Source: Kangiellaceae bacterium
GTDB taxonomy: Bacteria > Pseudomonadota > Gammaproteobacteria > Enterobacterales > Kangiellaceae
Direction of reading: 5' to 3'
Assembly: GCA_965230505.1 (NCBI GenBank)
Contig: OZ246006.1
Location: 3,453,752-3,517,751 of the forward strand
Length of the DNA stretch: 64,000 nt
The notes beneath the pieces are model-generated. The model was not told the origin of the DNA and did no database searches. It worked only from the letters and a program-made list of their open reading frames with translations. This document shows, in pieces, positions 3,161-36,258 of the stretch. Position 1 is the first letter of the stretch. Each line of letters starts with the position of its first letter. The position numbers were made by a program, and so were the translations under genes.

Positions 3161-3614
3161 CTCTATACCTCAAAATATGAATGTTTCTAATGGTTTATAC
3201 GAAAAGATCATGGACTTGTTTTAATGGCAAATCAAGCACAGATGACTCTATATGGGGACATTTAGTGACAAACTCAAACCAAAGTATGCCGCAATTTTAA
3301 TATCGACTACACATACTTGCTTCTAAAGGTTATTTAGCGAAGCTTGCATAATTGAGCCCGCGAAATTAGAATGTGCTTGAAATTAACTAATGGTATCAAA
3401 AAAATTGTTCAATAACTCGACTAACCAACAGCGTATTTATCTGCAAACAGAGAATCTCTCTGAAGGGATAGTCGTGTCGATCCGTTCTTGGAAGAGTGAA
3501 GGGAACAGTTTAAGTACAGGTAGTCATTTATTGTAGAAACACTTCTAACTTTGGAAGTGTTAGCTTCTAAAGTTTAAAATTATAAGATTGGATTAAACAA
3601 TCAAATTTATTTGA

Positions 3615-3649
3615 AACGCCGGAAGCTGAAGAGCCCCGGCGTTTTTTTA
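3615..3649 (+). terminator. Rho-independent terminator-like hairpin
   Basis: AACGCCGG / CCGGCGTT stem followed by a 7-T run. Confidence 0.7.
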
Positions 3650-4125
3650 TGTCCAAGGATGGACGGTATTAAGAAAATGCAGGAGCAATTTTCTGTTATG
3701 TCCAAGGATGGACGGTATTAAGAAAATGCAGGAGCAATTTTCTGTTATGTCCAAGGATGGACGGTATTAAGAAAATGCAGGAGCAATTTTCTGTTATGTC
3801 CAAGGATGGACGGGCAGTTTCCAAGGATGGACGGGCAGTTTTTTGTTCCAGACAAAAACTGCACTTCCTACATCCATGTAGGTCGTATTCGGAAAATGCA
3901 GGAGCAATTTTCTGTTATGTCCAAGGATGGACGGGCAGTTTTTTGTTCCAGACAAAAACTGCACTTCCTACATCCATGTAGGTCGTATTCGGAAAATGCA
4001 GGAGCAATTTTCTGTTATGTCCAAGGATGGGTGGGCAGTTTATTGTTCCAGACAAAAACTGCACTTCCTACATCCGTGTAGGTCGTATTCGGAAAATGCA
4101 GGAGCAATCTTTTGCTTTGTCCATT
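3650..4125. repeat. Tandem repeat array: 3 x 49-bp units then 3 x ~121-bp units
   Basis: The unit GTCCAAGGATGGACGG..AAAATGCAGGAGCAATTTTCTGTTAT repeats with period 49. The long units are the same unit carrying an embedded ~65-nt double-hairpin (REP-like) element. The predicted ORFs here are repeat artefacts. Confidence 0.9.
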
Positions 4126-4177
4126 GACTAACAAATTTACAAAAATAAAATCAAATATAGTAATTAAAGGAAAAAAT

Positions 4178-4290
4178 ATTGACGACTAAACATCAAATAT
4201 TAGCGTAGTAGGTTTGGAATTGAATGGGTCTGTTTCAAATAATATTAAGGGAATTCACTGAATACTAGGTGAAGGAATAGACTCAATTTG
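4178..4290. repeat. ~110-bp dispersed direct repeat, copy 1
   Basis: ATTGACGACTAAACA.CAAATATT.GCGTAGTAGGTTTGGAATTGAATGGGTCTGTTTCAAAT.ATATT.AGGGAATTCACTGAAT occurs again at 5392-5505 at roughly 90% identity. Confidence 0.85.
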
Positions 4291-4627
4291 AAATTCTGTA
4301 ACCTATTGAAAAAATAATGAAAATAATTGATATTTGCTGTTGACAGAGTGGCGTTTAAAAGTATTTAATACTCGGCAAATCGGAAACACGAATTAATATA
4401 CAAAAACTTGAGAAGAGAAATTGAAGCGATGAAATATCAAATAGAGACACAATTTAAAGACGCAAGAGAACAACAGTTCTCTCGCCAGTCTTTGCTCTGT
4501 TTATTGAGTAGTCCGCTAGACGGATCAAAGAATGGCAAACAACATTCTATATTAAATTAACTCGCTTCCTTATTTGGAAGCGCAGGCTTCCGGATAAGAA
4601 GAATTCAACTCACACCTGCATTCTCTA

Positions 4628-4660
4628 AAGCCGCAAGCCTAAAAACTTGCGGCTTTTTTA
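4628..4660 (+). terminator. Rho-independent terminator
   Basis: AAGCCGCAAG-loop-CTTGCGGCTT followed by TTTTTT. It is followed by a fragment (TGTCCATGGATGGACGGTATT) of the 49-bp repeat unit. Confidence 0.75.
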
Positions 4661-4755
4661 TGTCCATGGATGGACGGTATTCCGCAAGGAGCCATGGATG
4701 GCGGTGGGGTATTTTCGAACAATCAAATCTGCAAGAAGAATAATAGTCGTTATTG

Positions 4756-4832
4756 GGGTAACCATAGCTTAATGGTAAAGCTTCGGATTGTGGGTCCGAA
4801 TGATACGGGTTCGAATCCGGTTGGTTACCCCA
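4756..4832 (+). tRNA. tRNA-His (GTG)
   Basis: Manual cloverleaf. 8-bp acceptor stem with an extra 5' G pairing to C73 (His hallmark). D arm AGCT/AGCT. Anticodon stem TCGGA/TCCGA with loop TTGTGGG. T-loop TTCGAAT (one G-G mismatch in the T-stem). Confidence 0.7.
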
Positions 4833-4859
4833 ATGATGATTAATGAGAAAAAGATTAAC

Positions 4860-5032
4860 GCCCAGGTGGTGCTCAACTCTTTATAGAGAACCGAGCATAC
4901 GCGGCGGATTTAGAATCCGTTTATTGAGAGTTCGACGAGCTATGTAGGAACATCGCCGAACATCGGAAGAATGACGATGGCACGAAAGTGTGAAGACCAA
5001 GGATGGTCTGAATAATCTCTCCTTGGGCACCA
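4860..5032 (+). ncRNA. tRNA-like RNA with a conserved ~80-nt insertion in the T-loop (copy 1)
   Basis: Acceptor GCCCAGG/CTTGGGC with discriminator A and CCA. T-stem GAGAG/CTCTC. The T-loop starts TTCGA, then holds an 80-nt conserved element before closing. The D and anticodon region is non-canonical. Confidence 0.6.
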
Positions 5033-5052
5033 AATTTAGAAAGTTGAAGCTT

Positions 5053-5116
5053 TGAGTAGGTCAAAGTCCTGGTCTTGAAAATCAGTGGAACCTTAGTTGG
5101 TTTGGGCTCTACTCAT
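5053..5116 (+). ncRNA. Truncated tRNA-Ser(TGA)-like element
   Basis: 7-bp acceptor TGAGTAG/CTACTCA. Anticodon arm CTGGT-CTTGAAA-ATCAG. No T-arm. 64 nt. Confidence 0.35.
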
Positions 5117-5151
5117 TTTTATCTGGGGGCCTCCGGCTTCCACAGTTTAAC

Positions 5152-5240
5152 TGGAGAGTAATCCGTGATGGTGATCGGCGTCGTTTGCTAAACGAATGGA
5201 AGGCAATGTCTTTAAGGTTCAATTCCTTTTCTCTCCGCCA
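5152..5240 (+). ncRNA. Degenerate tRNA-like element (acceptor, T-arm and CCA present; anticodon arm non-canonical)
   Basis: GGAGAG/CTCTCC acceptor, TTCAATT T-loop, G discriminator and CCA. The central hairpin TCGTT-TGCTA-AACGA has a 5-nt loop. Confidence 0.4.
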
Positions 5241-5391
5241 ATTTAATGCGCCGGTGATGGCGATAAATATTACGAGCGAGGCATACATGCAATTTTAAAA
5301 GCAGGTTTTGACTTGCTCTTAGAAACTGTATCGAATCTCCCTCGGCGTAACAAATTTAGTATAGGTAATTGTAAAACTAAAAAGGAAAATA

Positions 5392-5505
5392 ATTGACGAC
5401 TAAACAACAAATATTTGCGTAGTAGGTTTGGAATTGAATGGGTCTGTTTCAAATTATATTGAGGGAATTCACTGAATTTTGGGTGAAGGACCAGTCTCAA
5501 CTCTG
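5392..5505. repeat. ~110-bp dispersed direct repeat, copy 2
   Basis: Matches 4178-4290. Confidence 0.85.
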
Positions 5506-5552
5506 ATGTTTGTAAGTTGTTGAAATAAAAGAATAAAAATAAAAATAAACTG

Positions 5553-5581
5553 TTGACGTACTGAAATTCCGATGGTTAAAT
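5553..5581 (+). promoter_or_regulatory. Sigma-70-like promoter (TTGACG-N17-TTAAAT)
   Basis: Good -35 hexamer, 17-nt spacer, AT-rich -10. No protein gene immediately downstream. Confidence 0.45.
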
Positions 5582-5693
5582 ACACAGCAAGAAATGAGTG
5601 ACATCCTTTGATATTAAAGATAAAAATTATTCTCGAGTCACAATATAGATTGTTTTTATTCAATCTTAGATAGATAGCTAAATAGAGTTAAAC

Positions 5694-5804
5694 ATGAAAA
5701 TGACAAACAACGATATACACGTGAAACAGCAAGGGCCTATATGGTCAGGTGTGTATTGTTACGCCAAATTTATGCGCAGAATTGAAGATACAAATATAGA
5801 TTAA
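5694..5804 (+). CDS. Possible 36-aa small ORF within a ~310-nt promoter-terminator unit
   Basis: ATG...TAA reads MKMTNNDIHVKQQGPIWSGVYCYAKFMRRIEDTNID. Weak RBS. Lies between the promoter at 5553 and the terminator at 5856. Confidence 0.2.
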   Translation: MKMTNNDIHVKQQGPIWSGVYCYAKFMRRIEDTNID

Positions 5805-5855
5805 GCTTCGAAGATAAATTTCGAGGCTAGTAATGAGTCTCGAAGGGAAATTAGA

Positions 5856-5891
5856 AACCTGGTTGAGACGATTCTTAACTAGGTTTTTTTA
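5856..5891 (+). terminator. Rho-independent terminator
   Basis: AACCTGGTT...AACTAGGTT stem followed by TTTTTTT. Confidence 0.6.
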
Positions 5892-6003
5892 TTTGGGATT
5901 TATAAAAATGTTTTTGAAAAAATTATTTGGAAAAGATGTTTTTGACATACAAGCGGCTTAACAGTCGCAATCAATTTAAAAATTGTCGCGGCTATAAATA
6001 ATA

Positions 6004-6094
6004 GCAGCGTAGTTTAAGGGTAAAACAGCGGGTTTATACTCCGTAGCAACAGATAATTGGCTGATCCGAGTTCGAGTCTCGGCGCTGCTACCAA
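6004..6094 (+). tRNA. Type-II-like (long variable arm) tRNA with anticodon TAT
   Basis: Perfect 7-bp acceptor AGCAGCG/CGCTGCT, A discriminator, CCA. D-stem GTTT/AAAC. Anticodon stem GCGGG/TCCGT with loop TTTATAC. 21-nt variable region. T-arm CCGAG-TTCGAGT-CTCGG. Confidence 0.5.
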
Positions 6095-6350
6095 ATTAAA
6101 AATTAGTATTATTAGATCAGATAAACATGAAAACGATTGTTAAACAAAAACAGATTATCAAACCGACGAATTGTTGGTGCGGTGATGTGCGTCCCGAACA
6201 AGGGAGTTGTCTCTTAATAGGTACTGGTAATCGCATGTATAAGATTTTTAATAGTTATGACAAACAAGGTGCCAGAGGTGCACCTATGTAACTCTGCAAG
6301 TTTTTGCTTGCGAGTTACGAAAAGTTTCTCTCGAGTATAGTGAAGTCGAG

Positions 6351-6380
6351 CCCGAGAGATAAAATCCTCGGGTTTTTTTA
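6351..6380 (+). terminator. Rho-independent terminator
   Basis: CCCGAG...CTCGGG stem followed by TTTTTTT. Confidence 0.7.
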
Positions 6381-6570
6381 TGCCTCTATCGTGGGCAACG
6401 TTCTTTAACAAATTAGGTTTCGCAAAAGAGTAAGAGCAGTCTGTTTGATGCTCGCAAGATTTTTTAAAAAGGATGGCGGGAGATGTGGATCTCGATCGGA
6501 TTGTAACCCCGACGCGCAAGCATGGCTGCTGGGGGGGGCGCACGTCTTCGACTCCAGGGTCATCCACCAG

Positions 6571-6646
6571 AGCAGGTGTAGTGTTAACGGCAGCACGTTT
6601 GGCTTCCACCCAAAAAGTTCGAGTTCGAATCTCGAGATCTGCTCCA
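6571..6646 (+). tRNA. tRNA-Gly(TCC)-like, non-canonical D region
   Basis: Acceptor AGCAGGT/ATCTGCT (one G-U). Anticodon arm TTTGG-CTTCCAC-CCAAA is perfect. T-arm TCGAG-TTCGAAT-CTCGA. Spacing around the D-arm is irregular. Confidence 0.45.
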
Positions 6647-6654
6647 AATTTTAT

Positions 6655-6730
6655 AGCGGGTCGGTGTAGTGGTTAACATAGAGGATTCATATTCCTCTGA
6701 ACGACAGTTCGAATCTGTCACCCGAAACCA
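6655..6730 (+). pseudogene. tRNA-Met(CAT)-like, probable pseudo-tRNA
   Basis: Anticodon arm GAGGA-TTCATAT-TCCTC. T-arm GACAG-TTCGAAT-CTGTC. CCA encoded. Only 5 of 7 acceptor pairs form, and positions 8-9 are CG rather than the usual U8. Confidence 0.45.
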
Positions 6731-6738
6731 TTATTTGT

Positions 6739-6814
6739 AGCAATGTAGCTCAGTTGGTAGAGCACACCCTTCATACGGGTGAGAGCACTGGTTCGAATCC
6801 AGTCATTGCTACCA
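6739..6814 (+). tRNA. tRNA-Met (CAT) (elongator or Ile-lysidine type, not distinguished)
   Basis: Canonical cloverleaf. AGCAATG/CATTGCT acceptor. GCTC/GAGC D-stem. CACCC-TTCATAC-GGGTG anticodon arm. ACTGG-TTCGAAT-CCAGT T-arm. A discriminator and CCA. Confidence 0.85.
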
Positions 6815-6821
6815 AATTTAT

Positions 6822-6978
6822 CTGGGATTAGCTCAGTCTGGTCAGAGTCCTCCGTTTGGAACGGAGATGTCGAAGGTTCAACGAGCATCGTAGGAACGAT
6901 GCCGAATATCGGAAGAATGACGATGGCACGTATGTGTGAAGACCATGGACGGTCTGAATAATCCTTCATCCCAGACCA
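6822..6978 (+). ncRNA. tRNA-Pro(TGG)-like gene with a conserved ~85-nt insertion in the T-loop (copy 2)
   Basis: Acceptor CTGGGAT/ATCCCAG with discriminator A and CCA. D-arm GCTC..GAGT. Anticodon arm CTCCG-TTTGGAA-CGGAG. T-stem GAAGG/CCTTC encloses TTCAA, then the insert, then AATAAT. The insert is about 85% identical to the one at 4860-5032. Confidence 0.65.
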
Positions 6979-7001
6979 ATTAATTTGTGAATAATAAACA
7001 A

Positions 7002-7122
7002 GGGGAAGTAGCTCAATTGGGAGAGGCAAGTTTTTGCTCCTGCAAAACTTGCACTTCCTACGTCCATGTAGGTCGCCACGCTTGCAAGTTTTCGGTTGTG
7101 AGTTCGAGTCTCATCTTCTCCA
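7002..7122 (+). ncRNA. tRNA-like gene carrying a REP-like double-hairpin insertion in the anticodon region
   Basis: Acceptor GGGGAAG/CTTCTCC. T-arm GTGAG-TTCGAGT-CTCAT. The interior holds GCAAGTTTTTGC-TCCT-GCAAAACTTGC plus ACTTCCTACGTCCATGTAGGTCG. The same element sits in the 3650-4125 array. It is flanked by the direct repeat GCAAGTTTT. Confidence 0.55.
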
Positions 7123-7131
7123 CTACATTAA

Positions 7132-7207
7132 GGGTGTATAGCTCAAATGGTAGAGCGACTGCCTGTTAAGTAGTTGGTTGAAGGTTCAAATCCTTCTGCG
7201 CCCGCCA
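7132..7207 (+). tRNA. tRNA-Asn (GTT)
   Basis: GGGTGTA/TGCGCCC acceptor (two G-U pairs). GCTC/GAGC D-stem. ACTGC-CTGTTAA-GTAGT anticodon arm. GAAGG-TTCAAAT-CCTTC T-arm. G discriminator and CCA. Confidence 0.8.
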
Positions 7208-7293
7208 ATTTAATGAATCGCGATGGTGAAATACAACTGAGGTTTCACCCTACAGACCCGTCACGGTGAAAGCCCGACTCAGTTATCTTTAAA

Positions 7294-7369
7294 CCCCGGA
7301 TAGCTCATTTGGTAGAGCACATGCCTGATAAGCGTGAGGTGGCTGGATCGTAACCAGCTCTGGGGACCA
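7294..7369 (+). tRNA. tRNA-Ile (GAT)
   Basis: CCCCGGA/TCTGGGG acceptor. GCTC/GAGC D-stem. CATGC-CTGATAA-GCGTG anticodon arm. T-arm GCTGG/CCAGC with an atypical loop ATCGTAA. A discriminator and CCA. Confidence 0.7.
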
Positions 7370-7377
7370 AATTTATT

Positions 7378-7453
7378 AGCACTTTAGCTCAATTGGTAGA
7401 GCGCCTGTTTTACACACAGGAGGTCGACTGTTCGATTCAGTCAAGTGCTACCA
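7378..7453 (+). tRNA. tRNA-Val (TAC)
   Basis: AGCACTT/AAGTGCT acceptor. GCTC/GAGC D-stem. CCTGT-TTTACAC-ACAGG anticodon arm. GACTG-TTCGATT-CAGTC T-arm. A discriminator and CCA. Confidence 0.85.
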
Positions 7454-7459
7454 GTTTAT

Positions 7460-7536
7460 GGGTTGCTAGCTCAATTGGTAGCAGCATCCGGCTTTTAACC
7501 GGAAGGTTCCGAGTTCGAATCTCGGGCGGCCCACCA
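7460..7536 (+). tRNA. tRNA-Lys (TTT)
   Basis: GGGTTGC/GCGGCCC acceptor (two G-U pairs). Anticodon arm TCCGG-CTTTTAA-CCGGA. T-arm CCGAG-TTCGAAT-CTCGG. A discriminator and CCA. The D-stem has one C-C mismatch. Confidence 0.75.
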
Positions 7537-7605
7537 AACATTCCAACATCACGAACCGAGGTGTGATGATACTTTTTGACGGTGGAAGTCCGTACTCGGT
7601 ATAGG

Positions 7606-7692
7606 ACACGAGTATACAAGTGGTCAAAGTAACCAGACTTTCAATCTGGTCTTATGAATAGTTCGCGGGTTCGAATCCCGTCTCGTGTGCCA
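7606..7692 (+). tRNA. Type-II-like tRNA (15-nt variable arm) with anticodon TTC
   Basis: Perfect acceptor ACACGAG/CTCGTGT, G discriminator, CCA. 3-bp D-stem. Anticodon arm CCAGA-CTTTCAA-TCTGG. T-arm GCGGG-TTCGAAT-CCCGT. Anticodon and architecture do not match any standard isoacceptor. Confidence 0.5.
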
Positions 7693-7697
7693 TATTT

Positions 7698-8037
7698 AGC
7701 TCCGTGGTGTAGTTGGTAACACTCAAGATTTTGATTAGGTACTTGGTATGACTGGTTAACGTGATTTCAGAACAATGTTTTCAGGTTAGTGCGAGGCGTA
7801 TTGTGCAGGAAATGGTATTCCCTTTTCAAACGATACAACGAAGCAATAATTTGAAAAAAATTGTTCCCGAAGGGCGGTTCCAGAAATTGCAAGCTATGTT
7901 GTTGTACTCCCTTGAATTGGCTACGGCCAGTCCTGCGGTCGTACGCCTAATATCTTACAATTTCTTGATTCGCTGAAGTCACGTTAACCAGTCATACCAA
8001 GTACTTATCGTTGGTTCGAACCCAGCCAGAGCTGCCA
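7698..8037 (+). ncRNA. tRNA-like scaffold whose anticodon-arm position holds a ~270-nt insertion with 27-bp perfect terminal inverted repeats
   Basis: 5' part: acceptor AGCTCCG, D-arm GTGT-AGTTGGTA-ACAC, then CAAGA-TTTTGATTA. 3' part: T-arm GTTGG-TTCGAAC-CCAGC, acceptor CAGAGCT, G, CCA. Between them lie GGTACTTGGTATGACTGGTTAACGTGA and its exact reverse complement. Confidence 0.6.
7738..8007. mobile_element. MITE-like insertion (27-bp perfect TIRs, ~215-bp core, possible TTA duplication)
   Basis: TIRs at 7738-7764 and 7979-8005 are perfectly complementary. The 71-aa internal ORF has no recognisable features. Confidence 0.5.
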
Positions 8038-8077
8038 AATACTAAACTAAAACTTCATGCCTTAAGGAGGATAAATC

Positions 8078-8389
8078 ATGAAACTATATTTAGACGATGT
8101 TCGTCCTGCTCCAGCAGGATGGAAGTTAGTGCGCTGGCCACAGGAAATGATTGAGCTTTTGATGACTGGTGCAGTCACGGATGTCAGCTTAGATCACGAT
8201 CTAGGCGATGACAAACGAGGTACTGGGTACGATGTAATTACTTGGCTGGAAAAAGCAGTTGTCGATTATGGATTAGTACCGCCAAACATTAAAGTTCATT
8301 CTGCGAATGTTCCGGCAAGAAAACGAATGGAGCGAGGGATTAAATCAGTTAACCACCTTTACCAATTTAGAAGTCGGTACCATTCATAA
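8078..8389 (+). CDS. Cyclic-phosphate processing receiver (CPR) domain protein
   Basis: 103 aa. The N-terminus MKLYLDDVRPAPAGW and overall size match the CPR-domain small-protein family recurrently linked to RNA-repair loci. Strong AGGAGG RBS. Confidence 0.65.
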   Translation: MKLYLDDVRPAPAGWKLVRWPQEMIELLMTGAVTDVSLDHDLGDDKRGTGYDVITWLEKAVVDYGLVPPNIKVHSANVPARKRMERGIKSVNHLYQFRSRYHS

Positions 8390-8536
8390 TTTTACTTTCT
8401 AACGGAAGTTAGGATTTTTTGTGAATCCCGCAATGGGATTCTAATAGGGAAATCTGCCGTACACGGACGTTTCTTTTAGTACAAAACTCAGAGCGAAAAC
8501 TAATTTGCTATACTTAACATAACAAGGAGAACGATT

Positions 8537-9115
8537 ATGCAAGCTCAGATCTTGCGACTTAACAAAGCTGGTCAAGCAATGGAGTGGATTAACTTTGAAT
8601 CCGCGGCTTGTTTGTACTCTAAAGATCAAGTGTTGTGGACATTTGGTAAAACTGCTGCACGTCTTAATGGTGGCCATTCGAGACTAACTGGACAACGGTC
8701 TTTTCTTGATATCGCTTCGGTAATCGCTACCGATGGTCAAATCCATCAACGCCATAGCCGTGTACCAGCTTTAAGCAACTACGCGTTATTCCAGCGAGAT
8801 GAGCATTTGTGTATGTATTGCGGAAAGCCTTTTAGTCGTTCAGAGTTAACTCGTGATCATGTTATTCCGCAGGCTCGAGGTGGAAAAAATACTTGGACCA
8901 ATTGTGTCGCGGCATGTAAGCCTTGTAATAATTTTAAGGGGTGTCGTACACCGGAAGAAGCTCACATGAGCCTAATAGCCATTCCATTCCGACCTAATAT
9001 TTCTGAGTACTTAGCTTTAGCGAATAGAAATATACTGGCCGATCAAATGGAGTTTTTGGTGAAAGGATTTTCAAATAATATGCTAGAAAAAGTAAAGCGT
9101 GAGAACAAAAAATAA
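8537..9115 (+). CDS. HNH endonuclease
   Basis: CMYCG...LTRDHVIPQARGG..W.N.VAAC..CN..KG zinc-finger/HNH signature. Good RBS (AAGGAG). Confidence 0.85.
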   Translation: MQAQILRLNKAGQAMEWINFESAACLYSKDQVLWTFGKTAARLNGGHSRLTGQRSFLDIASVIATDGQIHQRHSRVPALSNYALFQRDEHLCMYCGKPFSRSELTRDHVIPQARGGKNTWTNCVAACKPCNNFKGCRTPEEAHMSLIAIPFRPNISEYLALANRNILADQMEFLVKGFSNNMLEKVKRENKK

Positions 9116-24174: not shown

Positions 24175-25344
24175 ATGGGCAATCACAATGGATTTAATAT
24201 CCAAACATTGTCTGCGAGCGTTAATTTAATCGCCAATGCAGACACTTGGATCGAAGGTAAAGCGATCCAACAATTACAAAAAACAGCAGAGTTAGAAGGG
24301 GTTGTTAAGGCAGCAGGTATGCCGGATCTACATCCAGGAAGAGGTTATCCAATTGGCGCTGCTTTTTTAACGAAAAACAAAATTTACCCCGCTCTTATCG
24401 GGAATGATATAGGCTGCGGTATGACTTTATGGGCCACTGATATTAAAGTTAGAAAGGTGAACCTTGATAAATTTGAGAAGCGTCTTGAAAGTATTGATGA
24501 GCCGTTAACTGCAGACTGGCAAGACTATATCTCTGAAAGATATCGAAATAAAGCGTTATCTTCCAGCGGGTTTGAAAGAGCGCTCGGGACAATAGGAGGA
24601 GGGAATCATTTTGCTGAGCTACAGCGGCTTGATCAAGTCATTGATGAAGCGATTGTTAGTGAACTAGAAATTGATAAGAAGCATTTAGTCTTGTTAGTTC
24701 ACAGTGGCTCTAGAGGATTAGGCGAGCGTATTTTAAGAGCACATGTTGATAGTTTTGGTCATGCAGGCTTAGCGACTAATAGCGATGAATGTAATCAATA
24801 CATTGAACAGCACAACATGGCGATTAAGTTTGCGGAAATTAATCGTGAGTTAATCGCAAAGCGAATGCTTGATAATTTGCATGCCAAAGGAAAGGTGCTT
24901 TTGGATGTCAATCATAACTTAGTGACTGAAAAAATGATCGATAATCAATCGCACTGGATCCACCGCAAGGGAGCGACCCCTGCTGATTGTGGCTTAGTGA
25001 TGATGCCAGGTTCGAGAGGGGATTATAGTTACTTAGTGCACCCGAATGTTGATGCAGAGCTTGGATTTGAAAGTCTCTATTCGCTAGCGCATGGCGCAGG
25101 ACGTAAATGGATGCGGACTGAATGCAAAGATCGATTGTCAAAACGGTATCGACAATCGGACTTAGAAAGAACCGCACTAGGTAGTCGTGTTATTTGTAAG
25201 AATAAGGCACTGATTTTTGAAGAAGCACCTGAGGCTTACAAGCCAATATCATCAGTGATAGCGGCTATGCAGGAAGCGGGCTTGATTAAATTGGTGGCAC
25301 GATTTAAACCTGTTTTAACGTATAAAACAAGCGGAGGCTGCTAA
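24175..25344 (+). CDS. rtcB: RtcB-family RNA ligase, release-factor-H-coupled type (RtcB2)
   Basis: Metal/GTP-site motifs DLHPGRG, GCGM, GGGNHF, HSGSRGLG, HGAGR. Stop overlaps the prfH start. Confidence 0.9.
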   Translation: MGNHNGFNIQTLSASVNLIANADTWIEGKAIQQLQKTAELEGVVKAAGMPDLHPGRGYPIGAAFLTKNKIYPALIGNDIGCGMTLWATDIKVRKVNLDKFEKRLESIDEPLTADWQDYISERYRNKALSSSGFERALGTIGGGNHFAELQRLDQVIDEAIVSELEIDKKHLVLLVHSGSRGLGERILRAHVDSFGHAGLATNSDECNQYIEQHNMAIKFAEINRELIAKRMLDNLHAKGKVLLDVNHNLVTEKMIDNQSHWIHRKGATPADCGLVMMPGSRGDYSYLVHPNVDAELGFESLYSLAHGAGRKWMRTECKDRLSKRYRQSDLERTALGSRVICKNKALIFEEAPEAYKPISSVIAAMQEAGLIKLVARFKPVLTYKTSGGC

Positions 25345-25988
25345 TGATTTTATTACAACTATCCGCTGGGCAAGGTCCTGCTGAGTGTTGCCTAGCAGTT
25401 GCCAAAGCCATGGTTTTATTAGAGAAAGAAGCAAAGAAGTTGGATGTTATTCTTAGTCTGGTAGAAGAGGTTAATGGCCTCGAACGAAGGACTACTAAGT
25501 CGGCATTATATCGCTTAGAGGGAAAGGCATCATCAGAGCTAGCGCAAAAATGGAGTGGAACAATGCAATGGGTTTGTCAAAGTCCTTATAGGCCAAAACA
25601 TAAAAGAAAGAACTGGTTCTTTACGGGTAGTTATAGTGAACATGCCGAGATGAATTTCTCTAAAGCGATCACCTATGAAGCTTGTCGCTCTTCTGGACCG
25701 GGTGGGCAACATGCTAACAAGACAAGTTCAGCTGTGCGAGCGACTCATCTTGATTCGGGTATTTCTGTCAAAGTTCAATCAGAACGCAGTCAGCATATGA
25801 ACAAGCGATTGGCGAAAGCTTTGATTGAAGTGAAATTGGCTGAAAGCCAAAGAGATTCGGAACAGATAGAAAAAGGCAATAGACATAAGTCTCATCATTC
25901 GATTGAGAGAGGAAATGCAATTAGAGTCTTTAAAGGACCCGATTTTCTAACTGTAGTCACTGATGAGGAACAACGAAATGAGGTATAG
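25344..25988 (+). CDS. prfH: Peptide chain release factor H
   Basis: MILLQLSAGQGPAECC N-terminus and SGPGGQHANKTSSAVRATHL GGQ motif. Close to E. coli PrfH. Confidence 0.9.
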   Translation: MILLQLSAGQGPAECCLAVAKAMVLLEKEAKKLDVILSLVEEVNGLERRTTKSALYRLEGKASSELAQKWSGTMQWVCQSPYRPKHKRKNWFFTGSYSEHAEMNFSKAITYEACRSSGPGGQHANKTSSAVRATHLDSGISVKVQSERSQHMNKRLAKALIEVKLAESQRDSEQIEKGNRHKSHHSIERGNAIRVFKGPDFLTVVTDEEQRNEV

Positions 25989-26358
25989 AAGAGTGACTCC
26001 TCAAGAAAAAAAGATTAGGGATTACCTATACCAAACGACTAATTGTTATGGGTATAACGACAAAAACTCTAGAATTGCTATTCGAAAGAATAAAGCATCG
26101 AACTCGCGTACTTATCGAAGAAAGGTTCAAGGTGAGTTAGGGAGAGTTTTTGATGATCTTGACATGGTCGAACATCAAATAGCATGTATTAGGAGGGGGA
26201 ATTGGAAAAAATTTCCTGACGAGTGTTTATTAAAGTCATTTGAACATAAGTGGTCTGATAACAGTCGTACTTGTCATCTTGAAGATGATAAACGAACACT
26301 ACAAAATGAAGCGTTAAAACGGCTTAATAAGATTAAGACTCGTGAGTATTGGTATTAA
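25963..26358 (+). CDS. Hypothetical basic 131-aa protein
   Basis: ORF overlaps the prfH 3' end by 26 nt. Lys/Arg-rich. No family recognised. Confidence 0.35.
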   Translation: MRNNEMRYRRVTPQEKKIRDYLYQTTNCYGYNDKNSRIAIRKNKASNSRTYRRKVQGELGRVFDDLDMVEHQIACIRRGNWKKFPDECLLKSFEHKWSDNSRTCHLEDDKRTLQNEALKRLNKIKTREYWY

Positions 26359-26528
26359 TTTTTTAAACTACTGTTATAGCTTTTTGGATAACGAATAAAA
26401 CAGGAGAATGAAAGTAGTACTTTCAGCAATGAGTATGTAATACCTAGCAAAACAACAATAAGGAAGTATAAGGGACTCTACTTCAATTAAGAAGAGTCTG
26501 TCACAATGCATTTAAAAGGAGTAGGACT

Positions 26529-27242
26529 ATGAATACTCAAGTGAAAAATAGGCGATTTAAATATCCGAGGACCATGCATTTACCATGGTCTCCGGGATTT
26601 ACAGACGATGATGTAAAAGGAGCAAGTTCAGAAATCTTTAATGGTCGAGAGGTTGTCATCACGGAAAAAATGGACGGTGAGAATACGACGTTATATAACG
26701 ATCATACTCATGCTCGTTCAATCGATAGTCGTCATCACCCATCTAGAGATTGGCTAAAGCGATGGCATGCAGAGTTCGCACATGAAATTCCATCCGGTTG
26801 GAGAATTTGCGGAGAGAATCTTTATGCGCAGCATTCAATTGTTTATGACAAGTTAGAAAGTTATTTTTATGGCTTCTCGATATGGAATGACAAAAATTAT
26901 TGCCTTAGTTGGGATGAAACCTTGGATTGGTTTCGTTTGCTCGAAATTACAACGCCAAAGGTGATCTATCGAGGGCTTTGGGATGAAAAACTTGTCCGTA
27001 GCATCAAGTTAGATACAGATGTCGTAGAAGGTTATGTTGTGCGGCTAGCCGAGCAATTTGATTTTGATAGTTTTAACTCTAGCGTTGCCAAATGGGTAAG
27101 AAAAGGACATGTACAAACGGATAAACACTGGATGCATGCAGAGCTGAAGCTAAATGGTTTAGCTGAAGTTAAATTCGAACACCAACTTGAGCCGTATAAA
27201 GCGACAATAGAAAATAAGGAGGTATCGAATGAAACCAAATAA
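26529..27242 (+). CDS. ATP-dependent RNA ligase (RNA_ligase/Rnl-type nucleotidyltransferase)
   Basis: YPRTMHLPWSPG N-terminal motif and KMDGEN (KxDG lysine-adenylylation motif I). Confidence 0.7.
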   Translation: MNTQVKNRRFKYPRTMHLPWSPGFTDDDVKGASSEIFNGREVVITEKMDGENTTLYNDHTHARSIDSRHHPSRDWLKRWHAEFAHEIPSGWRICGENLYAQHSIVYDKLESYFYGFSIWNDKNYCLSWDETLDWFRLLEITTPKVIYRGLWDEKLVRSIKLDTDVVEGYVVRLAEQFDFDSFNSSVAKWVRKGHVQTDKHWMHAELKLNGLAEVKFEHQLEPYKATIENKEVSNETK

Positions 27243-28497
27243 AAACAAAAAAGTAAATGCTTGGTTAAACGAGTTAGCCTCCAAGGCTAAACCTGATGTT
27301 AACGAATGCATTGAATACTTGGGCGAGAACTTTGAGTGGCTATACGAACTCAAAAATACACCTCAAGATCCTGAGTGGCACGCTGAAGGAAACGTACACA
27401 TCCACACAGATATGGTGCTCGCAAAGCTTTACAATTTGCTGGATAACGAAGCTTCTCATCTTAACGGCAAGCAACGACAAGCATTGATACTGGGCGCGCT
27501 TTTCCATGATATAGCTAAACCTATGCGGACGAAGAAAATAGAGATTAACGACGTTTTGCGAGTGGTTAGCCCACAACATGAATCAGTTGGTCGCTCCTAT
27601 CTAGCCTTTAAGCTAATGGAGTTGGAGCTTGAATTTGATGTAGTTTGGAATGTCTTAGGTTTAGTTGGAGAGCACCATATGCCAAAGTTGTTGGCTGTTA
27701 GAAACAAGGCAAAGGGTGATTACCTTGCTCTATCTCGGCGAGCAAACCTCGAACTCTTGTATTGGTTAGAAACCGCGGATATGAAAGGCCGAAGTTGCCC
27801 CGATTTGCCTTTGCAGCTACAACATTTGGCGGAATTTAAAATGTTTGCTGAAGAATATGGTGTTTGGAATAAACCCCATGAACTTGAGCAGGATTTTCTC
27901 AAGCTAGTTGAAGCTGAGAGTGACTCCATGGCGAGCTATATTCAGGCGTATGCTGTGTCAGAGTTAGAAAGTGGTGTTATTTCTCTACCCATTGAGGCGG
28001 TCGCTCGCACATTTGAATATAGGGAAAGCTATTCGAACTTGGTAGTCATTTGTGGTCCGAGTGGTTCAGGAAAAACCACTTGGATAGGAAATAACTGTGC
28101 AGACCATGTGCTGATTTCTCTTGACGATATAAGAGAAGAAATCAACGGAGATCGTAGAAGCCAGAAAAACAAGGGAAAGGTCATTCACCTTGCTCGAGAC
28201 CGACTGAAGCAGGCCTTGCGGAATAAACAAGATGTCGTTTGGGATGCGACTAATCTGCGCTCAGATTTCAGAAAAATCATTTGTGATCTCGGGCGTGATT
28301 ATCATGCCTTAGTCACCATTGTTTTGTTTATGTTGCCGGAGTCAATTATTTACCAAAATAATCGAAATCGAGAGTATGCGGTTCCGGAAGATGTATTGCT
28401 TAAGCAGTTTGAAGATTTTCAGTTTCCGTTAGTCAATGAGGCGCATTATTTTCAGATTGTTGGTGAGAAGGGGGAACTGCTTTTTTCGAACGAATAA
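27229..28497 (+). CDS. HD-domain phosphohydrolase fused to P-loop polynucleotide kinase (Pnkp-like RNA end-healing enzyme)
   Basis: HD motif (H...LFHDIAKP) in the N-terminal half. GPSGSGKTT Walker A and kinase-like C-terminal half. Start overlaps the ligase gene. Confidence 0.7.
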   Translation: MKPNKNKKVNAWLNELASKAKPDVNECIEYLGENFEWLYELKNTPQDPEWHAEGNVHIHTDMVLAKLYNLLDNEASHLNGKQRQALILGALFHDIAKPMRTKKIEINDVLRVVSPQHESVGRSYLAFKLMELELEFDVVWNVLGLVGEHHMPKLLAVRNKAKGDYLALSRRANLELLYWLETADMKGRSCPDLPLQLQHLAEFKMFAEEYGVWNKPHELEQDFLKLVEAESDSMASYIQAYAVSELESGVISLPIEAVARTFEYRESYSNLVVICGPSGSGKTTWIGNNCADHVLISLDDIREEINGDRRSQKNKGKVIHLARDRLKQALRNKQDVVWDATNLRSDFRKIICDLGRDYHALVTIVLFMLPESIIYQNNRNREYAVPEDVLLKQFEDFQFPLVNEAHYFQIVGEKGELLFSNE

Positions 28498-28593
28498 AGA
28501 CTATTACAAGGATTAGACCATGAGATATCGTTTAATTTTAAAAGAAAAGGGATTTGTTATCCATTAGTTAAATTCAACTAATGGAGAACAAAA

Positions 28594-28797
28594 ATGAAAT
28601 GTAATTATTTTCGCTACCCCAATAGCACCAATGAAATGCGACAGTTCTATGCGTCTAATGACAATGAACTAGGAATCCGTATTAAAGTTCGAGGAAGAAG
28701 AAGGCCTAAAAGGTTACCGAATTCTTGGGATGATATTAATTCAGAGAATCAACGGTGCTGGAAGACTCGGCGCAAAAATCAATGGAAAGTCACTTAG
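28594..28797 (+). CDS. Small basic hypothetical protein (67 aa)
   Basis: GGAG RBS 8 nt upstream. No similarity recognised. Confidence 0.3.
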   Translation: MKCNYFRYPNSTNEMRQFYASNDNELGIRIKVRGRRRPKRLPNSWDDINSENQRCWKTRRKNQWKVT

Positions 28798-28988
28798 AAC
28801 TAGTTCTGGTGACTTTCTATTAATTAAATCTCAGATGACGGACGATTCTAATTTATGGCAACCCGATACGGTGATTGAATCAAAGACCATTGTATCTGCT
28901 AGATAGTGCATTGTCGGGTATCGCTACAAGCTCAACACCGACCTACTTTGAGTCGACTTGTGTTTCTAGGATAATGGGCCGCCCAAAA

Positions 28989-29762
28989 TTAGAGCACCCG
29001 ATGAAATAACTCATTCAACTCCTCAAAGTCGAAACTTCTCCCCAATTCAGTGCCACTATAATCTTCAAGCCTTTCAAGCTGAGAGGTAATAAACTGATTA
29101 ATAACAGGTACCGCCGGCGCAATCTCTTTTTCCATGGCTTGCTTTTTTCGCTCGATCAAATCGGTAATTGCTAAATCAAGTTCGGAACCTGTCTCAAGCA
29201 TTTGCCTGAGAGTATCAAACTCAATGGGTGCTGGCGTACGATACTTCTCCATCCACAAGATCGAGAGCAACGGTCTTAAAACGTAAAAATATTTCTTAAG
29301 TGGAACCATTGGTTTACGCAAATATCCTCTATAGTTGGTTTTAGCCATACTTCGATAATGGTATATCCCTTTATTAATCGAGTAGCTCGACGCCAGCATT
29401 TTCCTAGCAGACTCAGCGAATACTCCGTCGTCTCGATAGACAATAGATGAGTGCAGCCATTCAACAAATGAAGGGTTGGATTTTTTGAACAGCCTTAATG
29501 CTTTGCGAACATCCCATCCGCTGATATCTATTTCATCGACAATCGGGTATTCGATAACGTCGCGTTTCTCCTCGAGATCAACAGCGACATACCAATCTTT
29601 GGGATGGGCATAGATAAACCTGACATCATAGTCACTGTTAGGTGAAGCAAACCCCCAGGCTCTACTGCCTGATTCGACAGCGTAGAGGACTTTTACATTG
29701 TGCTCTTGTTCTGCAGCATCGATTCTTCGTTGAATTTCTTGTTCTATTTCTTTTGGTATCAT
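28989..29762 (-). CDS. RlaP-type (pol-beta superfamily) nucleotidyltransferase
   Basis: GSRAWGFASPNSDYDVRFIY nucleotidyltransferase core, typical of the RNA-repair-associated PF10127-like family. Confidence 0.65.
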   Translation of the reverse strand: MIPKEIEQEIQRRIDAAEQEHNVKVLYAVESGSRAWGFASPNSDYDVRFIYAHPKDWYVAVDLEEKRDVIEYPIVDEIDISGWDVRKALRLFKKSNPSFVEWLHSSIVYRDDGVFAESARKMLASSYSINKGIYHYRSMAKTNYRGYLRKPMVPLKKYFYVLRPLLSILWMEKYRTPAPIEFDTLRQMLETGSELDLAITDLIERKKQAMEKEIAPAVPVINQFITSQLERLEDYSGTELGRSFDFEELNELFHRVL

Positions 29763-29795
29763 GGTAATACTTCTTTGTTATTCGTTCTATTCAGT

Positions 29796-30767
29796 TTATT
29801 CGTTTATTTGCTTGGTGACCAACCGGTTCTTATCCAAGTGATATCTATCAAGATCATTAGCCAACCAAAGGTTACCCCTAAAATATTGCTTAGCTTCGTT
29901 TTCAACCTCGTCAATAGAATCGGATTTATCACTGTCAGGCTGATAGCGCGCACTGAAGTGAGTAAGAATCAAATTCTTAATACCCGATTGCTCCGCAAAT
30001 TGAGCGACTCTCTTAGCGCAACTGTGTTGTGGTCCTGAACCTACTTTTTCTGAAACAGCGCTAGTGTAGGTCGACTCATGAACCAATAGGTCCGCTTCTT
30101 TTGCCGCTTGCGCTAAAAGGTCTGGGGTATCATTATCACCACCGATAACGATCTTTCTCGCTCTCTCTAATGGTAAATAGCAATCGGTGGCTTGGATTTC
30201 TTGTCCATTGTCTAGCGTAATTGACTGACCACTTTGAAGCTGACCCCATAAAGGTCCTCGTTCAATACTCAGTTTTTGTAACTTATCAACATCCAATCGA
30301 TTTGAGCGATTATTCTCAGTGAAGCTATAAGCAAAACTCGGCACTCGATGAGAGAGTTCAATCGCTTCGATTTTAAATTCCTTATCCTTATCATATAAAC
30401 CAAGTGATTCCGCAGAAACAAACACTATCGAGTAATTTAAGTATGTATCGGTTAGCTTAAACGTTGATGTAACGAATTCTTCGATACCTTTTGGCGCAAT
30501 AATAGTTAATGGCTCAGTGCGACCTGTCATTGCGGTAGTTGCTAGTAGTCCCGGTAATCCGTAACAATGGTCACCATGCACATGAGTAATGCATATTGTC
30601 TTTAAGTTTTTTAAAGACAGTTTTGTATGCAATAGTTGATGTTGCGTGCCTTCGCCACAATCGATTAGGGTCCATGATTTGCTGTCTTGTTTTTTTAATG
30701 CAAGACCGCTGACATTTCGGGATTTTGTTGGGACTCCGGAGGAGGTTCCTAAGAATGTGATTTCCAT
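29796..30767 (-). CDS. rnz: Ribonuclease Z / BN (tRNA 3' endonuclease, metallo-beta-lactamase fold)
   Basis: FLGTSSGVPT..RNV, DCGEGTQHQLLHT, HVHGDH..GLPGLL. Near-collinear with E. coli RNase BN. Confidence 0.85.
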   Translation of the reverse strand: MEITFLGTSSGVPTKSRNVSGLALKKQDSKSWTLIDCGEGTQHQLLHTKLSLKNLKTICITHVHGDHCYGLPGLLATTAMTGRTEPLTIIAPKGIEEFVTSTFKLTDTYLNYSIVFVSAESLGLYDKDKEFKIEAIELSHRVPSFAYSFTENNRSNRLDVDKLQKLSIERGPLWGQLQSGQSITLDNGQEIQATDCYLPLERARKIVIGGDNDTPDLLAQAAKEADLLVHESTYTSAVSEKVGSGPQHSCAKRVAQFAEQSGIKNLILTHFSARYQPDSDKSDSIDEVENEAKQYFRGNLWLANDLDRYHLDKNRLVTKQINE

Positions 30768-30948
30768 ATTGTTCTATCTTTTTGAGTTATAAATTAAATT
30801 TTAAGTTCAAAAGCGTTTCGCATCGCTTTGCTTGTATGCGACCTACTTTTGCCAAGAGCTGCAAAAATAGGCAAAAGAGCCCTCGTTTCAGCGAACTAGA
30901 ACAGTGCTTGTTGCAAGTTTTAACAAAATTTCCACATCTAGCTTGTTG

Positions 30949-31388
30949 TAAGCGAATCAAAGGGAAGAGAAAAACTCGCTGCGCTCAAACAATTCTCTTC
31001 CTATTCTTTGATTCATTCATTTCAGGTTGCCGTTCACAAGCACTAGGCAGAAAGGCATGATTTCCTAGCTCCCTTCGACTCTGCTCAGGACACCGCGCTT
31101 CGACTCCGCTCAGGGCAACGCCCAGCACATTTTTTAACTTTTGACCTTCGCCCAGTGCCTACGAACGAGACATTGAAACTCATGAATTCAAAGGTCAGAA
31201 GGAGAGTTGTTTGAGCACCGCGAGTTCTCTCCTTCCTTTGAATTCACTTTCAACAAGTTCCTAGACTGAAATCATGTTTTAGCTTTCAAAGTTCTCCAGA
31301 CTAGTTCGTTTAACGTGAAGCGCTTTTGCATACTTTTGGGGCTTAAGCCAAAAGTTTGTCGCAGTCAGAGCGCAGCGCTGCGAAACGC
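30949..31388. repeat. ~440-bp structured repeat, copy A
   Basis: About 80% identical to 34484-34888. Contains two mutually inverted long hairpins and a palindromic stem CTTTTGG..CCAAAAG. Confidence 0.85.
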
Positions 31389-31427
31389 CCTTAAAAAAGA
31401 AAGCGGGAAATCCCTTTCCCACTCCCA

Positions 31428-32573: not shown

Positions 32574-32969
32574 CTTCGTTCTCCTTATCTAATCTACAAC
32601 GATGCTTGTCTGTTGTTCTTCCTAATAAGTCGGCTTCCTGCAACTAGCTTGTAATGACTACTTAGGAATACTGGGAAATGAACTGAGAGGAGAGTAACTT
32701 AGTTGCATTAAGCATTAGTTTTATTTCCCCAACGAGGTTGTAAAAACTAAACGAATACAAGTCCGTTGCTCTCATCAGTTTACTTCGCGGCAAGCCAACC
32801 CATAGTGATTGGTCGATAGTTGCGGTGGAGCAATTTTTAGAGTTAAATCAATGTTGCTGATTAACTCCGCTACTCGCTGCACAGAAGCCTGGGTGTTTCT
32901 CTGAGGAGTCGAACCTCAACCTTTCGGTTTACCGGCTATTTTTTAAAAATAGAATCGATTTTCAGTCGA

Positions 32970-33046
32970 TGGTTACTTAGGTCGGAATCGAACCGACTAC
33001 CTATAGAGTAAATATCTATTGCTCTACCCAAATGAGCTACAAAGTA
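32970..33046 (-). ncRNA. tRNA-Lys(TTT)-like gene with A33 and one acceptor mismatch, located inside the rtc operon
   Basis: On the minus strand: TACTTTG acceptor, GCTC-ATTTGGGTA-GAGC D-arm, ATAGA-TATTTAC-TCTAT anticodon arm, GTCGG-TTCGATT-CCGAC T-arm, CTAAGTA-A-CCA. Confidence 0.5.
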
Positions 33047-33226
33047 GTGGTGTCTAGAATTAATAATCAAACTTGGTATACAGAAAGGTATGCCCGCTGC
33101 ACCAGACTGACCCGAGTGTTTATCCTCAGCAATCAGAGCTGCTAAATTTGTCATTATTTCCTAAACGCTTTTGGAAAAGCAGAATGACTATTCTGACTTT
33201 TCGCATTCTTTTTTAAATTTGTGATC

Positions 33227-34264: not shown

Positions 34265-34483
34265 TTCATTCTCGTCAATTTTTATTTAAGTGCCTATTTC
34301 GCAGCGCTGCGCTCCGACTGCGGCAGTTTTTTGCTCCTGCAAAAACTGCATACCGGTCATCCGTGACCATAACTTACTTTTGCCCAAAGCGGCGAAAGTA
34401 ACCAAAAGCGCTTTCCGTTTCAGCGAACTAGTTATTTACTTGTTGTTAGTTCACCTATTATTTTTACGGCTTTACTTGCTGTG

Positions 34484-34888: not shown

Positions 34889-34930
34889 GATCTTCAAAGC
34901 TGTTTAAATCAGCTAAAAAGCTGACCCAAA

Positions 34931-36181: not shown

Positions 36182-36240
36182 TTTGTTCTCTTTTCTTATC
36201 TTCTAAAGCTAATAACTCGATTTAATTGACAACCTAACAT

Positions 36241-36258
36241 AGCGAGCAGCGTGCCAAC
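36241..36258 (-). promoter_or_regulatory. Sigma-54 promoter for rtcB (TGGCAC-N5-TCGCT on minus strand)
   Basis: The reverse complement of 36241-36257 reads TTGGCACGCTGCTCGCT. The GG and GC elements sit at consensus spacing, about 60 nt upstream of the rtcB ATG. Confidence 0.6.

Follow-up and report, generated by a model that had tools for sequence, protein, structure and literature searches.

To our knowledge, the only interruptions recognised in the transfer RNA (tRNA) genes of bacteria are self-splicing introns of group I and, rarely, group II, which lie in the anticodon loop. Inserts in the T arm have been described in Archaea, where the non-canonical bulge-helix-bulge (BHB) introns of Thermoproteales and others occupy positions 53/54, 56/57 and 59/60 (PMC4090602), and cyanobacteria have been reported to hold long tRNA arrays that are linked to an HNH gene and regulated together with rtcB (PMC8421152). 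Here, we describe two tRNA-like genes, el1 and el2, which carry a nearly identical module of 79 nucleotides (nt) inside the T-loop and belong to a tRNA array within a 64-kb stretch of DNA (the window), part of the chromosome of a Kangiellaceae-like gammaproteobacterium. Comparison with related loci shows that the module is a discrete insertion of 78-79 nt, which has entered at least five tRNA species at one exact site and in one orientation. In the literature available for searching, neither T-loop inserts in tRNA genes of bacteria nor tRNA arrays of Kangiella were reported.

Both elements lie where a first-pass annotation of this DNA had placed them, and the intact acceptor stems, discriminators, CCA ends and T stems that it described are present in each. 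The acceptor stem of el1 is GCCCAGG/CTTGGGC and its T stem GAGAG/CTCTC, while el2 has CTGGGAT/ATCCCAG and GAAGG/CCTTC; both T stems are of 5 bp, and in both genes a discriminator A precedes the encoded CCA. The carriers themselves differ, el2 being a tRNA-Pro(UGG) and el1 having a non-canonical, Leu(UAG)-like body, again as had been proposed. The block shared by the two T-loops after TTCRA is ~87% identical (BLAST E=8e-24), although its length is exactly 79 nt and not the 80-85 nt first given. The 20-mer GGAAGAATGACGATGGCACG within it occurs in the 64 kb only at 4965 and 6911, against a chance expectation of 0.01 matches. In both genes the insert stands between T-loop nt 58 and 59 (TTCRA, insert, AT), and its size is fixed by uninterrupted orthologues, with a 1-nt ambiguity of the boundary because the last base of the insert is A. 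Among the related loci compared (labelled L003, L004, L008, L012, L015, L017, L018, L021, L023, L024 and L025), the tRNA-Pro(UGG) gene is uninterrupted at L003 9122-9199 and L015 2459-2536, where the neighbouring cREC is 96-97% identical to that of the window and the exons of el2 are matched at 98-100%. Uninterrupted orthologues of el1 are found at L003 7480-7556, L015 769-845 and L008 9378-9454, and the Leu(UAG)-like tRNA is without insert in Pleionea. The existence of these tRNA-Pro and tRNA-Leu genes in uninterrupted form in close relatives shows that the module is a true insertion. Module-bearing orthologues exist as well, for el1 at L004 7020-7190, where the D arm is expanded as well, and for el2 at L017 4943-5099.

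The module also explains why standard tRNA finders fail on these genes. ARAGORN called neither el1 nor el2 as encoded, and the Rfam tRNA model (RF00005) gave 22.7 bits for the 5' part of el2 (threshold 29) and no match for el1. After in-silico removal of the insert, el2 was recognized by ARAGORN as tRNA-Pro(tgg) and el1 was still not called; removal of 78-79 nt gave ARAGORN-positive tRNAs in six of the eight genes tested, with a T loop of 7 nt in five of them and of 8 nt in the Cys gene of L003. The Leu-like carriers, el1 and its counterpart in L004, are the oldest; they have rebuilt D arms with covariation of their own and are not tRNAs according to ARAGORN even without the insert.

Ten distinct module sequences were recovered, distributed over at least five tRNA identities (Leu-like, Pro, Cys, Arg and Phe) and one unassigned tRNA-like carrier in L023. 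Besides the Leu-like and Pro(UGG) genes already mentioned, the carriers are Cys(GCA) genes in the spacer between cREC and HNH (L003 and L024/L025), Arg(ACG) genes (L015, L018 and L021) and a Phe(GAA) gene (L018). All copies occupy site 58/59 on the sense strand of the tRNA, and all lie in Kangiellaceae tRNA arrays next to cREC and HNH. The empty sites, the number of tRNA identities and the single position agree with the initial view of a discrete structured module, which behaves as a T-loop-specific insertion. A covariance model (R1) matched T-loop copies only, retrieving all 12 at 103-115 bits (115 for the module of el1, 112 for that of el2) with the next best hit at 23 bits. A scan of 185,579 species, one genome each, with a degenerate 22-mer returned the Kangiellaceae T-loop copies and two chance hits in unrelated non-tRNA sequence, and a metagenome scan added one further Arg copy. 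No module was found in IMG/VR with a 19-mer and two degenerate patterns, which gave just two chance hits in coding sequence, nor in the phage and plasmid collections queried by BLAST. A strict screen for tRNA genes interrupted at 58/59 returned the module-bearing genes and a few AT-rich chance hits, with no other T-loop insert family in these loci. A common miniature inverted-repeat transposable element (MITE) scattered over random non-tRNA sites is therefore not what was seen: no copy stands at any non-tRNA site, including the many non-tRNA TTYRA sites of the 64 kb, and stem P1 of the module covaries.

Presence of the module is sporadic among close relatives, and its copies group by tRNA type, with orthologues differing at 3-7 of 79 positions and copies from different types at 8-16 of 79. 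It follows that the insertions are old and that mosaic recombination of the arrays accounts for part of the patchy presence. Concerted evolution within a genome was considered and rejected, given this grouping by tRNA type and the 11 of 79 positions that distinguish el1 from el2.

The consensus structure, obtained with RNAalifold and pair counts over the aligned copies (column numbers are those of the alignment), consists of four hairpins joined by the purine-only linkers GA, AA and GA. P1 spans columns 11-33 and has a bulged A and the loop UAGGAA; P2 is formed by columns 36-40/50-54 with an additional 43:47 pair, P3 by columns 55-58/63-66, and P4 by columns 69-74/79-84, closing on the loop ANGGAN. 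In this structure 96.6% of the cells pair, against 28-36% when the partners are slid. Compensatory changes occur at pairs 12:32, 15:30, 17:28 and 18:27 of P1 and at 43:47. P2, P3 and P4 are nearly invariant and are thus neither supported nor contradicted by covariation; the rare changes in P2 and P4 are of the wobble type (U36-G54, U39-G51 and G71-U82). The G-U pairs, the invariant G55-U66 among them, are compatible with the tRNA strand only. Folded in isolation, every module adopts the consensus structure (z = -2.7 to -4.5), which for el1 is also the minimum-energy fold (z = -3.7; el2, z = -2.7), and in folds of the full elements the cloverleaf arms form beside the module. This comparative evidence shows that it is as RNA, read from the tRNA strand, that the module acts, and that its four hairpins form independently of the carrier. 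The particular support first offered for structure has to be replaced, since the compensatory changes cited in the first-pass annotation are loop differences only and the real covariation is found in P1. Its CCGA/TCGG hairpin is contradicted, for C32 and G33 pair with G12 and C11, with covariation from G-C to U-A, and the hairpin as proposed takes uncompensated changes.

The interior of the module is constrained beyond its helices. The loop of P3 has eight variants among the ten copies, which means that free sites are near saturation, and 20 of the 29 unpaired positions are nevertheless invariant. GGA is invariant in the loops of P1, P2 and P4 in all copies, and the sole variation in the tail G85 A86 R87 U88 A89 is A/G at position 87. 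Divergence between orthologues was 6.3% in the module against 27.3% in the exons for the Cys pair, 8.9% against 18.6% for Leu, 6.3% against 5.1% for Pro and 3.8% against 0% for Arg, so that the module is better conserved than the tRNA exons in two of the four pairs. Taken together, saturated free sites, invariant unpaired bases and these divergences argue that the interior is constrained in place, and the pattern indicates purifying selection on the module after insertion. A passive intron spliced by proteins, or junk DNA, would not show such interior constraint.

The reading to which we lean, at a probability of roughly 0.4, is that the tRNAs carry the module as a functional RNA domain, which probably stays in place and binds a protein. 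The module would be transcribed inside the tRNA precursor. The tRNA would be its carrier, to which it would owe a transcription unit, processed ends and stability, and the module would be the functional cargo shown at the tRNA elbow. In the T-loop motif the strand may exit the loop right after the five motif nucleotides, and because the insertion point directly follows this motif the module would most likely stay in the mature RNA. There, its three invariant GGA loops could offer a platform for protein binding. Since P4 reads C-ANGGAN-G, which we take to be the consensus of a CsrA/RsmA-type site, a protein of this type is the candidate that can be named most concretely. The carrier role is consistent with the behaviour of the genes that have lost tRNA form (el1 and L004) or the CCA end (the Cys carrier of L003), all of which keep the module. 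Hairpins of the type CCANGGAYGG number 11 in the window, all on the + strand and all within 3653-6943, and the same strand bias is present in related arrays. P1 and P2 are also aligned, weakly, by the PrrB_RsmZ model of Rfam.

Several observations weigh against a retained domain. The sporadic presence of the module among close relatives indicates that it is dispensable. In-silico removal of the insert leaves perfect tRNAs in the Pro, Arg, Phe and L024 Cys genes. Conservation of the anticodon arms also exceeds what a mere scaffold would require: the Cys orthologues have the same anticodon loop although their exons diverge by 27%, and in the Leu pair the anticodon arm shows no difference across 17 nt. 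Both junctions stand exactly two unpaired nt 3' of a possible helix, T54-C56:G85-R87, a placement that points to excision. As for the protein partner, the Rfam family PrrB_RsmZ (RF00166) aligned its SL2 and SL3 to P1 and P2 at 18.6 bits, against a gathering score of 44, and no csrA gene was found by tblastn in the sequences examined.

The array and its neighbours are listed in Table 1. A phage origin of the window was rejected, since the genes for ChaC, a TonB-dependent receptor, FecR with an ECF sigma factor and beta-lactamase-fold enzymes are chromosomal; megablast of the array against phages gave matches to single tRNAs only. The order of a gene-free tRNA array followed by cREC and HNH is kept in every related locus, and in L012 the array unit comes directly after RtcR-RtcB-RtcA-Band7. 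An exact look-up returned no record of the window's own cREC protein. The closest cREC proteins are from Kangiellaceae and Pleionea, and cREC has been proposed to act on cyclic phosphate ends (PMC7824862). Relatives of cREC at <=68% identity stand in phage or unrelated contexts without arrays, where the covariance model finds no module, filters off included, and the same model finds none in the Pleionea and L012 arrays even with filters off. The RtcB and Rnl-Pnkp genes that had been noted nearby are indeed present as RtcB and RNA ligase/kinase genes, but at a distance of 16-30 kb. The equivalent position to the tRNA-Lys(UUU) of the window's repair gene set is occupied in L012 by a suppressor-like tRNA (anticodon UUA) between RtcA and Band7. 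A transposase gene of the IS256/Mutator family at 55057-56265 has no relation to the T-loop module.

Table 1. Positions of the module-bearing genes and of neighbouring features in the window.
Feature	Position	Strand	Details
el1	4860-5032	+	Leu(UAG)-like class-I tRNA carrier; expanded D arm (long D stem and internal hairpin), T-loop module, encoded CCA
el1 T stem 5' strand and T-loop nt 54-58	4926-4935	+	GAGAG and TTCGA; exon side of 5' junction
el1 module	4936-5014	+	79 nt; P1 4936-4958, P2 4961-4979, P3 4980-4991, P4 4994-5009, tail GAAUA 5010-5014
el1 T-loop nt 59-60 and T stem 3' strand	5015-5021	+	AT and CTCTC
el2	6822-6978	+	tRNA-Pro(UGG) carrier; T-loop module, encoded CCA
el2 module	6882-6960	+	79 nt; P1 6882-6904, P2 6907-6925, P3 6926-6937, P4 6940-6955, tail GAAUA 6956-6960
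tRNA gene array hosting el1 and el2	4758-8040	+	~20 genes for tRNAs or tRNA-like RNAs, all on the same strand; several are degenerate or interrupted; compared with L015 and L018
Upstream tandem array of hairpin units	3647-4123	+	GUCC-AAGGAU-GGAC hairpin, same motif as module P4
cREC (cyclic-phosphate processing receiver domain) gene	8078-8389	+	Pfam PF20274, E=3.9e-28; marks 3' end of array in all related loci
HNH endonuclease gene	8537-9115	+	Pfam HNH_5, E=1e-18; always adjoins cREC
RtcB genes	24175-25344 and 34931-36181		Pfam
RNA-repair gene set	24175-38017		RtcB with PrfH-like RF-1 protein, RNA ligase with HD/kinase protein, RlaP, MBL-fold protein, Band7, tRNA-Lys, RtcA, RtcB, RtcR
tRNA-Lys(UUU) within repair gene set	32970-33046	-

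Excision of the module as an intron, possibly with cargo, is the alternative that we take most seriously, somewhat less likely in our estimate than the carried domain. Two cuts would be made by an endonuclease or by the RNA itself, and the exons would be rejoined by a linked ligase, either RtcB or Rnl with Pnkp-like end healing. In a model of the precursor, T54-T55-C56 could pair with G85-A86-R87 in a helix of 3 bp that would leave both junctions two unpaired nt 3' of the helix on opposite strands, and the freed 79-nt RNA may have a function of its own, by analogy with the box C/D RNA of the archaeal tRNA-Trp intron. The symmetry of the junctions about this possible helix speaks for excision, as do changes within the helix that are only wobble-compatible (C56U, and A87G in two copies), the nearly invariant tail, the conserved anticodon arms and the recovery of ARAGORN-positive tRNAs with a 7-nt T loop from five of eight genes, next to the L003 Cys gene that is called with its 8-nt loop. 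Ligase genes are linked to the array, since the locus encodes RtcB twice, together with RtcA, cREC and an RNA ligase with HD/kinase, and in L012 the array stands right after RtcR-RtcB-RtcA. On the other hand, module-free arrays hold the same repair genes, splicing mediated by proteins needs no strong interior conservation, and the Leu-like carriers yield no canonical tRNA after removal of the insert. We know of no protein-dependent tRNA splicing in Bacteria, and no EndA-like gene was found in the 64 kb by Pfam (no tRNA_int_endo domain among open reading frames (ORFs) of >=120 aa). A canonical BHB was rejected: the best candidate is the helix T54-C56:G85-R87, of 3 bp instead of 4, with 5' GA^C leading into the junction, a 3' bulge UA^AU of 4 nt instead of 3, and a multi-helix junction in place of the inner helix. 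The precedents for such an intron are archaeal and include T-loop introns, intron transposition and intron-borne small RNA (PMC4090602).

We consider it improbable that the module is a selfish insertion at the DNA level, which disrupts redundant tRNAs of the array and whose RNA is functionless. Such a miniature element could be moved in trans, perhaps by a single-strand transposase of the IS200/IS605 type inserting 3' of a TTYRA target, or it could spread through recombination driven by the HNH endonuclease of the array. The patchy presence among close relatives, the insertion directly 3' of a pentanucleotide without target duplication, the HNH gene always beside the array and the decay or interruption of other array genes (Ala, Tyr and, by an element with 35-nt inverted repeats, Gln) would all fit. 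Against this stand the strand-specific G-U pairs and compensatory stem changes, as well as the clustering of copies by tRNA type and their conservation in place while exons diverge. There is no copy at the non-tRNA TTYRA sites of the 64 kb and no non-tRNA copy in the species-wide scan, and the window holds neither a Y1 transposase nor a reverse transcriptase. A MITE with inverted repeats was rejected, and the module does not fit the usual definition of an IS200/IS605-type miniature element either, since the ends CGAGC.../...GAATA are not inverted repeats, no target is duplicated, copies are confined to T-loops and no Y1 transposase is encoded in the window.

A group I intron was also rejected: Intron_gpI of Rfam was not matched at its gathering score, nor when hits with E up to 5 were admitted, the insert has no P3-P9 core, and it measures 79 nt where such introns exceed 200 nt. 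The earlier remark that no bacterial intron class is known at this site stands, as no Rfam intron family was matched. The scan for self-cleaving ribozymes that had been suggested detected no hammerhead, twister, twister-sister, pistol, hatchet, HDV-like or hairpin ribozyme at E up to 5 (3300-8600) or 10 (4900-5040). A new small self-cleaving or self-splicing ribozyme, whose five-way junction core would cut one or both junctions for sealing by RtcB, which joins 2',3'-cyclic phosphate and 5'-OH ends and is linked to the array, would suit the very conserved unpaired nucleotides, the purine-only junction, the size of ~80 nt and the invariant P2 loop, but it is very unlikely, given that no Rfam ribozyme or intron family is matched even at E up to 5 and that a small ribozyme normally cuts one site where two are needed here.

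The module is accompanied by other inserts and repeats. The tandem array upstream of the tRNA genes (3647-4123) begins with a 49-nt unit repeated 3.4 times and continues with a 100-nt unit repeated three times. Its units form GGA-loop hairpins (GUCC-AAGGAU-GGAC and ..UGC-AGGA-GCA..), to which the 100-nt unit adds UCC-loop hairpins (..UCCAG.. and CCUAC-AUCCAU-GUAGG), the loops being pairwise complementary. The module sequence CCAAGGATGG recurs in this array (3650-4125), as first noticed. No Rfam family is matched by the array, which may represent either a sponge RNA of the Csr/Rsm kind or a repeat that pairs with itself. GGA-loop hairpins (GUCCAUGGAUGGAC and GCCAUGGAUGGCG) also stand directly after the T-run of intrinsic terminators at 4661-4705, L015 1930-2040 and L012 8130-8170. 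At the third terminator, a block of ~125 nt present in L015 is absent from the window, so the terminator GGA-hairpins are presence/absence insertions as well.

A second insert family, at 7002-7122 (also L018 1395-1520 and L023 ~410-470), has two hairpins with the loops UGCUCCUGC and GUCCAU, the latter being the exact reverse complement of the P4 loop AUGGAC of el2. It interrupts tRNA-Ala(UGC) between the D stem and the anticodon stem, a gene that is uninterrupted at L015 2909-2984 and L018 501-576. The copy of the window ends in CTA, not CCA, and because of this end, besides the interruption, it is likely a pseudogene. At 7700-8037, tRNA-Gln(UUG) is interrupted after ~nt 39 by an element of ~270 nt with 35-nt terminal inverted repeats (7736-7770/7973-8007), and its 3' half is degenerate; the uninterrupted gene is at L015 3557-3631. 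This element looks like an ordinary MITE, unlike the T-loop module. A degenerate tRNA-Tyr(GUA) at 6440-6570, intact at L015 2125-2207, has an enlarged variable arm and has lost the 5' strand of its T stem.

Three repeated units precede tRNA blocks at 4153-4660, 5367-5890 and 6100-6380, each made of a promoter-like 162-nt repeat, a small ORF (4429-4560, ~5694-5805 and 6127-6291) and an intrinsic terminator. The promoter-like segments at 4153-4314 and 5367-5528 are 81% identical, and a hairpin, GCTCGCTTCCTTATTTGGAAGCGCAGGCTTCCGGATAAGA, 3' of the first small ORF is kept in L008, L012 and L024. These units may act by leader-peptide attenuation, tying expression of the array to translation status. 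After el1, at 5040-5130, follows a tRNA-Ser(UGA)-like element that lacks a normal T arm and is common only to L004, which also has the module-bearing Leu-like carrier; the two were probably inherited together as one cassette. Conserved structured spacers at 7210-7290 and 7540-7605, ending in ACGGUGAAAG(C/U)CCG(A/U)ACUC(A/G)G, stand directly upstream of tRNA-Ile(GAU) and tRNA-Glu and are found also in L015, L018, L024 and Pleionea. The 91-nt tRNA-Ile(UAU) at 6003-6093 has a long extra arm, and the identity of 85-92% between its 5' part and the tRNA-Ile of many Vibrio phages hints at an exchange of array tRNAs with phages.

What our results establish is a small, conserved and structured module that targets the T-loops of many tRNA species, in an array physically tied to the RtcB/RtcA/cREC repair genes. 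If the module is retained, tRNAs serve in nature as the scaffold on which a regulatory RNA domain is expressed and displayed. If it is spliced, it would represent, as a tentative interpretation of the sequence that we hold doubtful, the first class of introns in bacterial tRNA outside group I, mobile and lodged in the T-loop, with two symmetric cuts made by an endonuclease or by the RNA's own catalysis, rejoining by RtcB and a 79-nt RNA as regulatory cargo. Splicing would thus bring not only a new class but also an unrecognised bacterial tRNA splicing pathway, and would give RtcB a natural, physiological splicing substrate in Bacteria. In either case, a defined RNA with empty-site controls offers a handle on the biology of stress-induced tRNA arrays.

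The module fails the family tests that were run, and its nearest kinds are the archaeal non-canonical tRNA introns and tRNA-scaffolded non-coding RNAs. Bacterial group I tRNA introns are, like the module, sporadic, structured, borne on the sense strand and conserved after insertion, whereas they exceed 200 nt and occupy the anticodon loop with a P3-P9 core that the 79-nt T-loop module does not have. MITE, REP and IS200/IS605 hairpin repeats share with it small size, richness in hairpins, a short target, the absence of obvious duplication and polymorphic presence, but the module is without terminal inverted repeats, restricted to the T-loops of one array family and strand-specific, and no transposase is near. 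The host array resembles the cyanobacterial L-array tRNA operons in its length on one strand, its HNH gene, its link to RNA repair and RtcB, and its frequent insertions, duplications and decayed genes; the cyanobacterial work (PMC8421152) reports no T-loop inserts, and the array described here differs in its Kangiellaceae host, in the cREC-HNH pair that follows it and in the small ORF-terminator units that stand before it.

The sponge RNAs of the Csr/Rsm system (RsmZ, RF00166) consist, as does the module, of several short hairpins with GGA loops, and P4 fits C-ANGGAN-G; the repetition of the hairpin motif many times on one strand of the locus resembles them too. The module differs in lying within a tRNA and not in a free-standing gene, in the conservation of its non-GGA parts and in a score below gathering. 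Archaeal tRNA introns are likewise found as similar inserts across several tRNA species, which has been taken as transposition; their junctions lie two unpaired nt beyond a short helix on opposite strands, as is possible for the module, a ligase of the RtcB type is at hand in both, and an intron can hold a functional small RNA, as in tRNA-Trp (PMC4090602). The archaeal introns are mostly of 12-25 nt and free to vary, whereas the module is 79 nt long, highly structured and conserved in sequence, and it has a bacterial host, a 3-bp helix, a 4-nt 3' bulge, no inner helix and no EndA in the window. Rfam matches to YrlA in the array are weak and located outside the module. The Y RNA YrlA, from the rsr-rtcBA operon, and engineered tRNA scaffolds offer the parallel of a tRNA fold that frames another RNA domain, with a link to Rtc repair, as seen here. 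Compared with them, the carriers of the module have true acceptor ends with CCA, and the cargo sits in the T-loop instead of replacing the anticodon stem.

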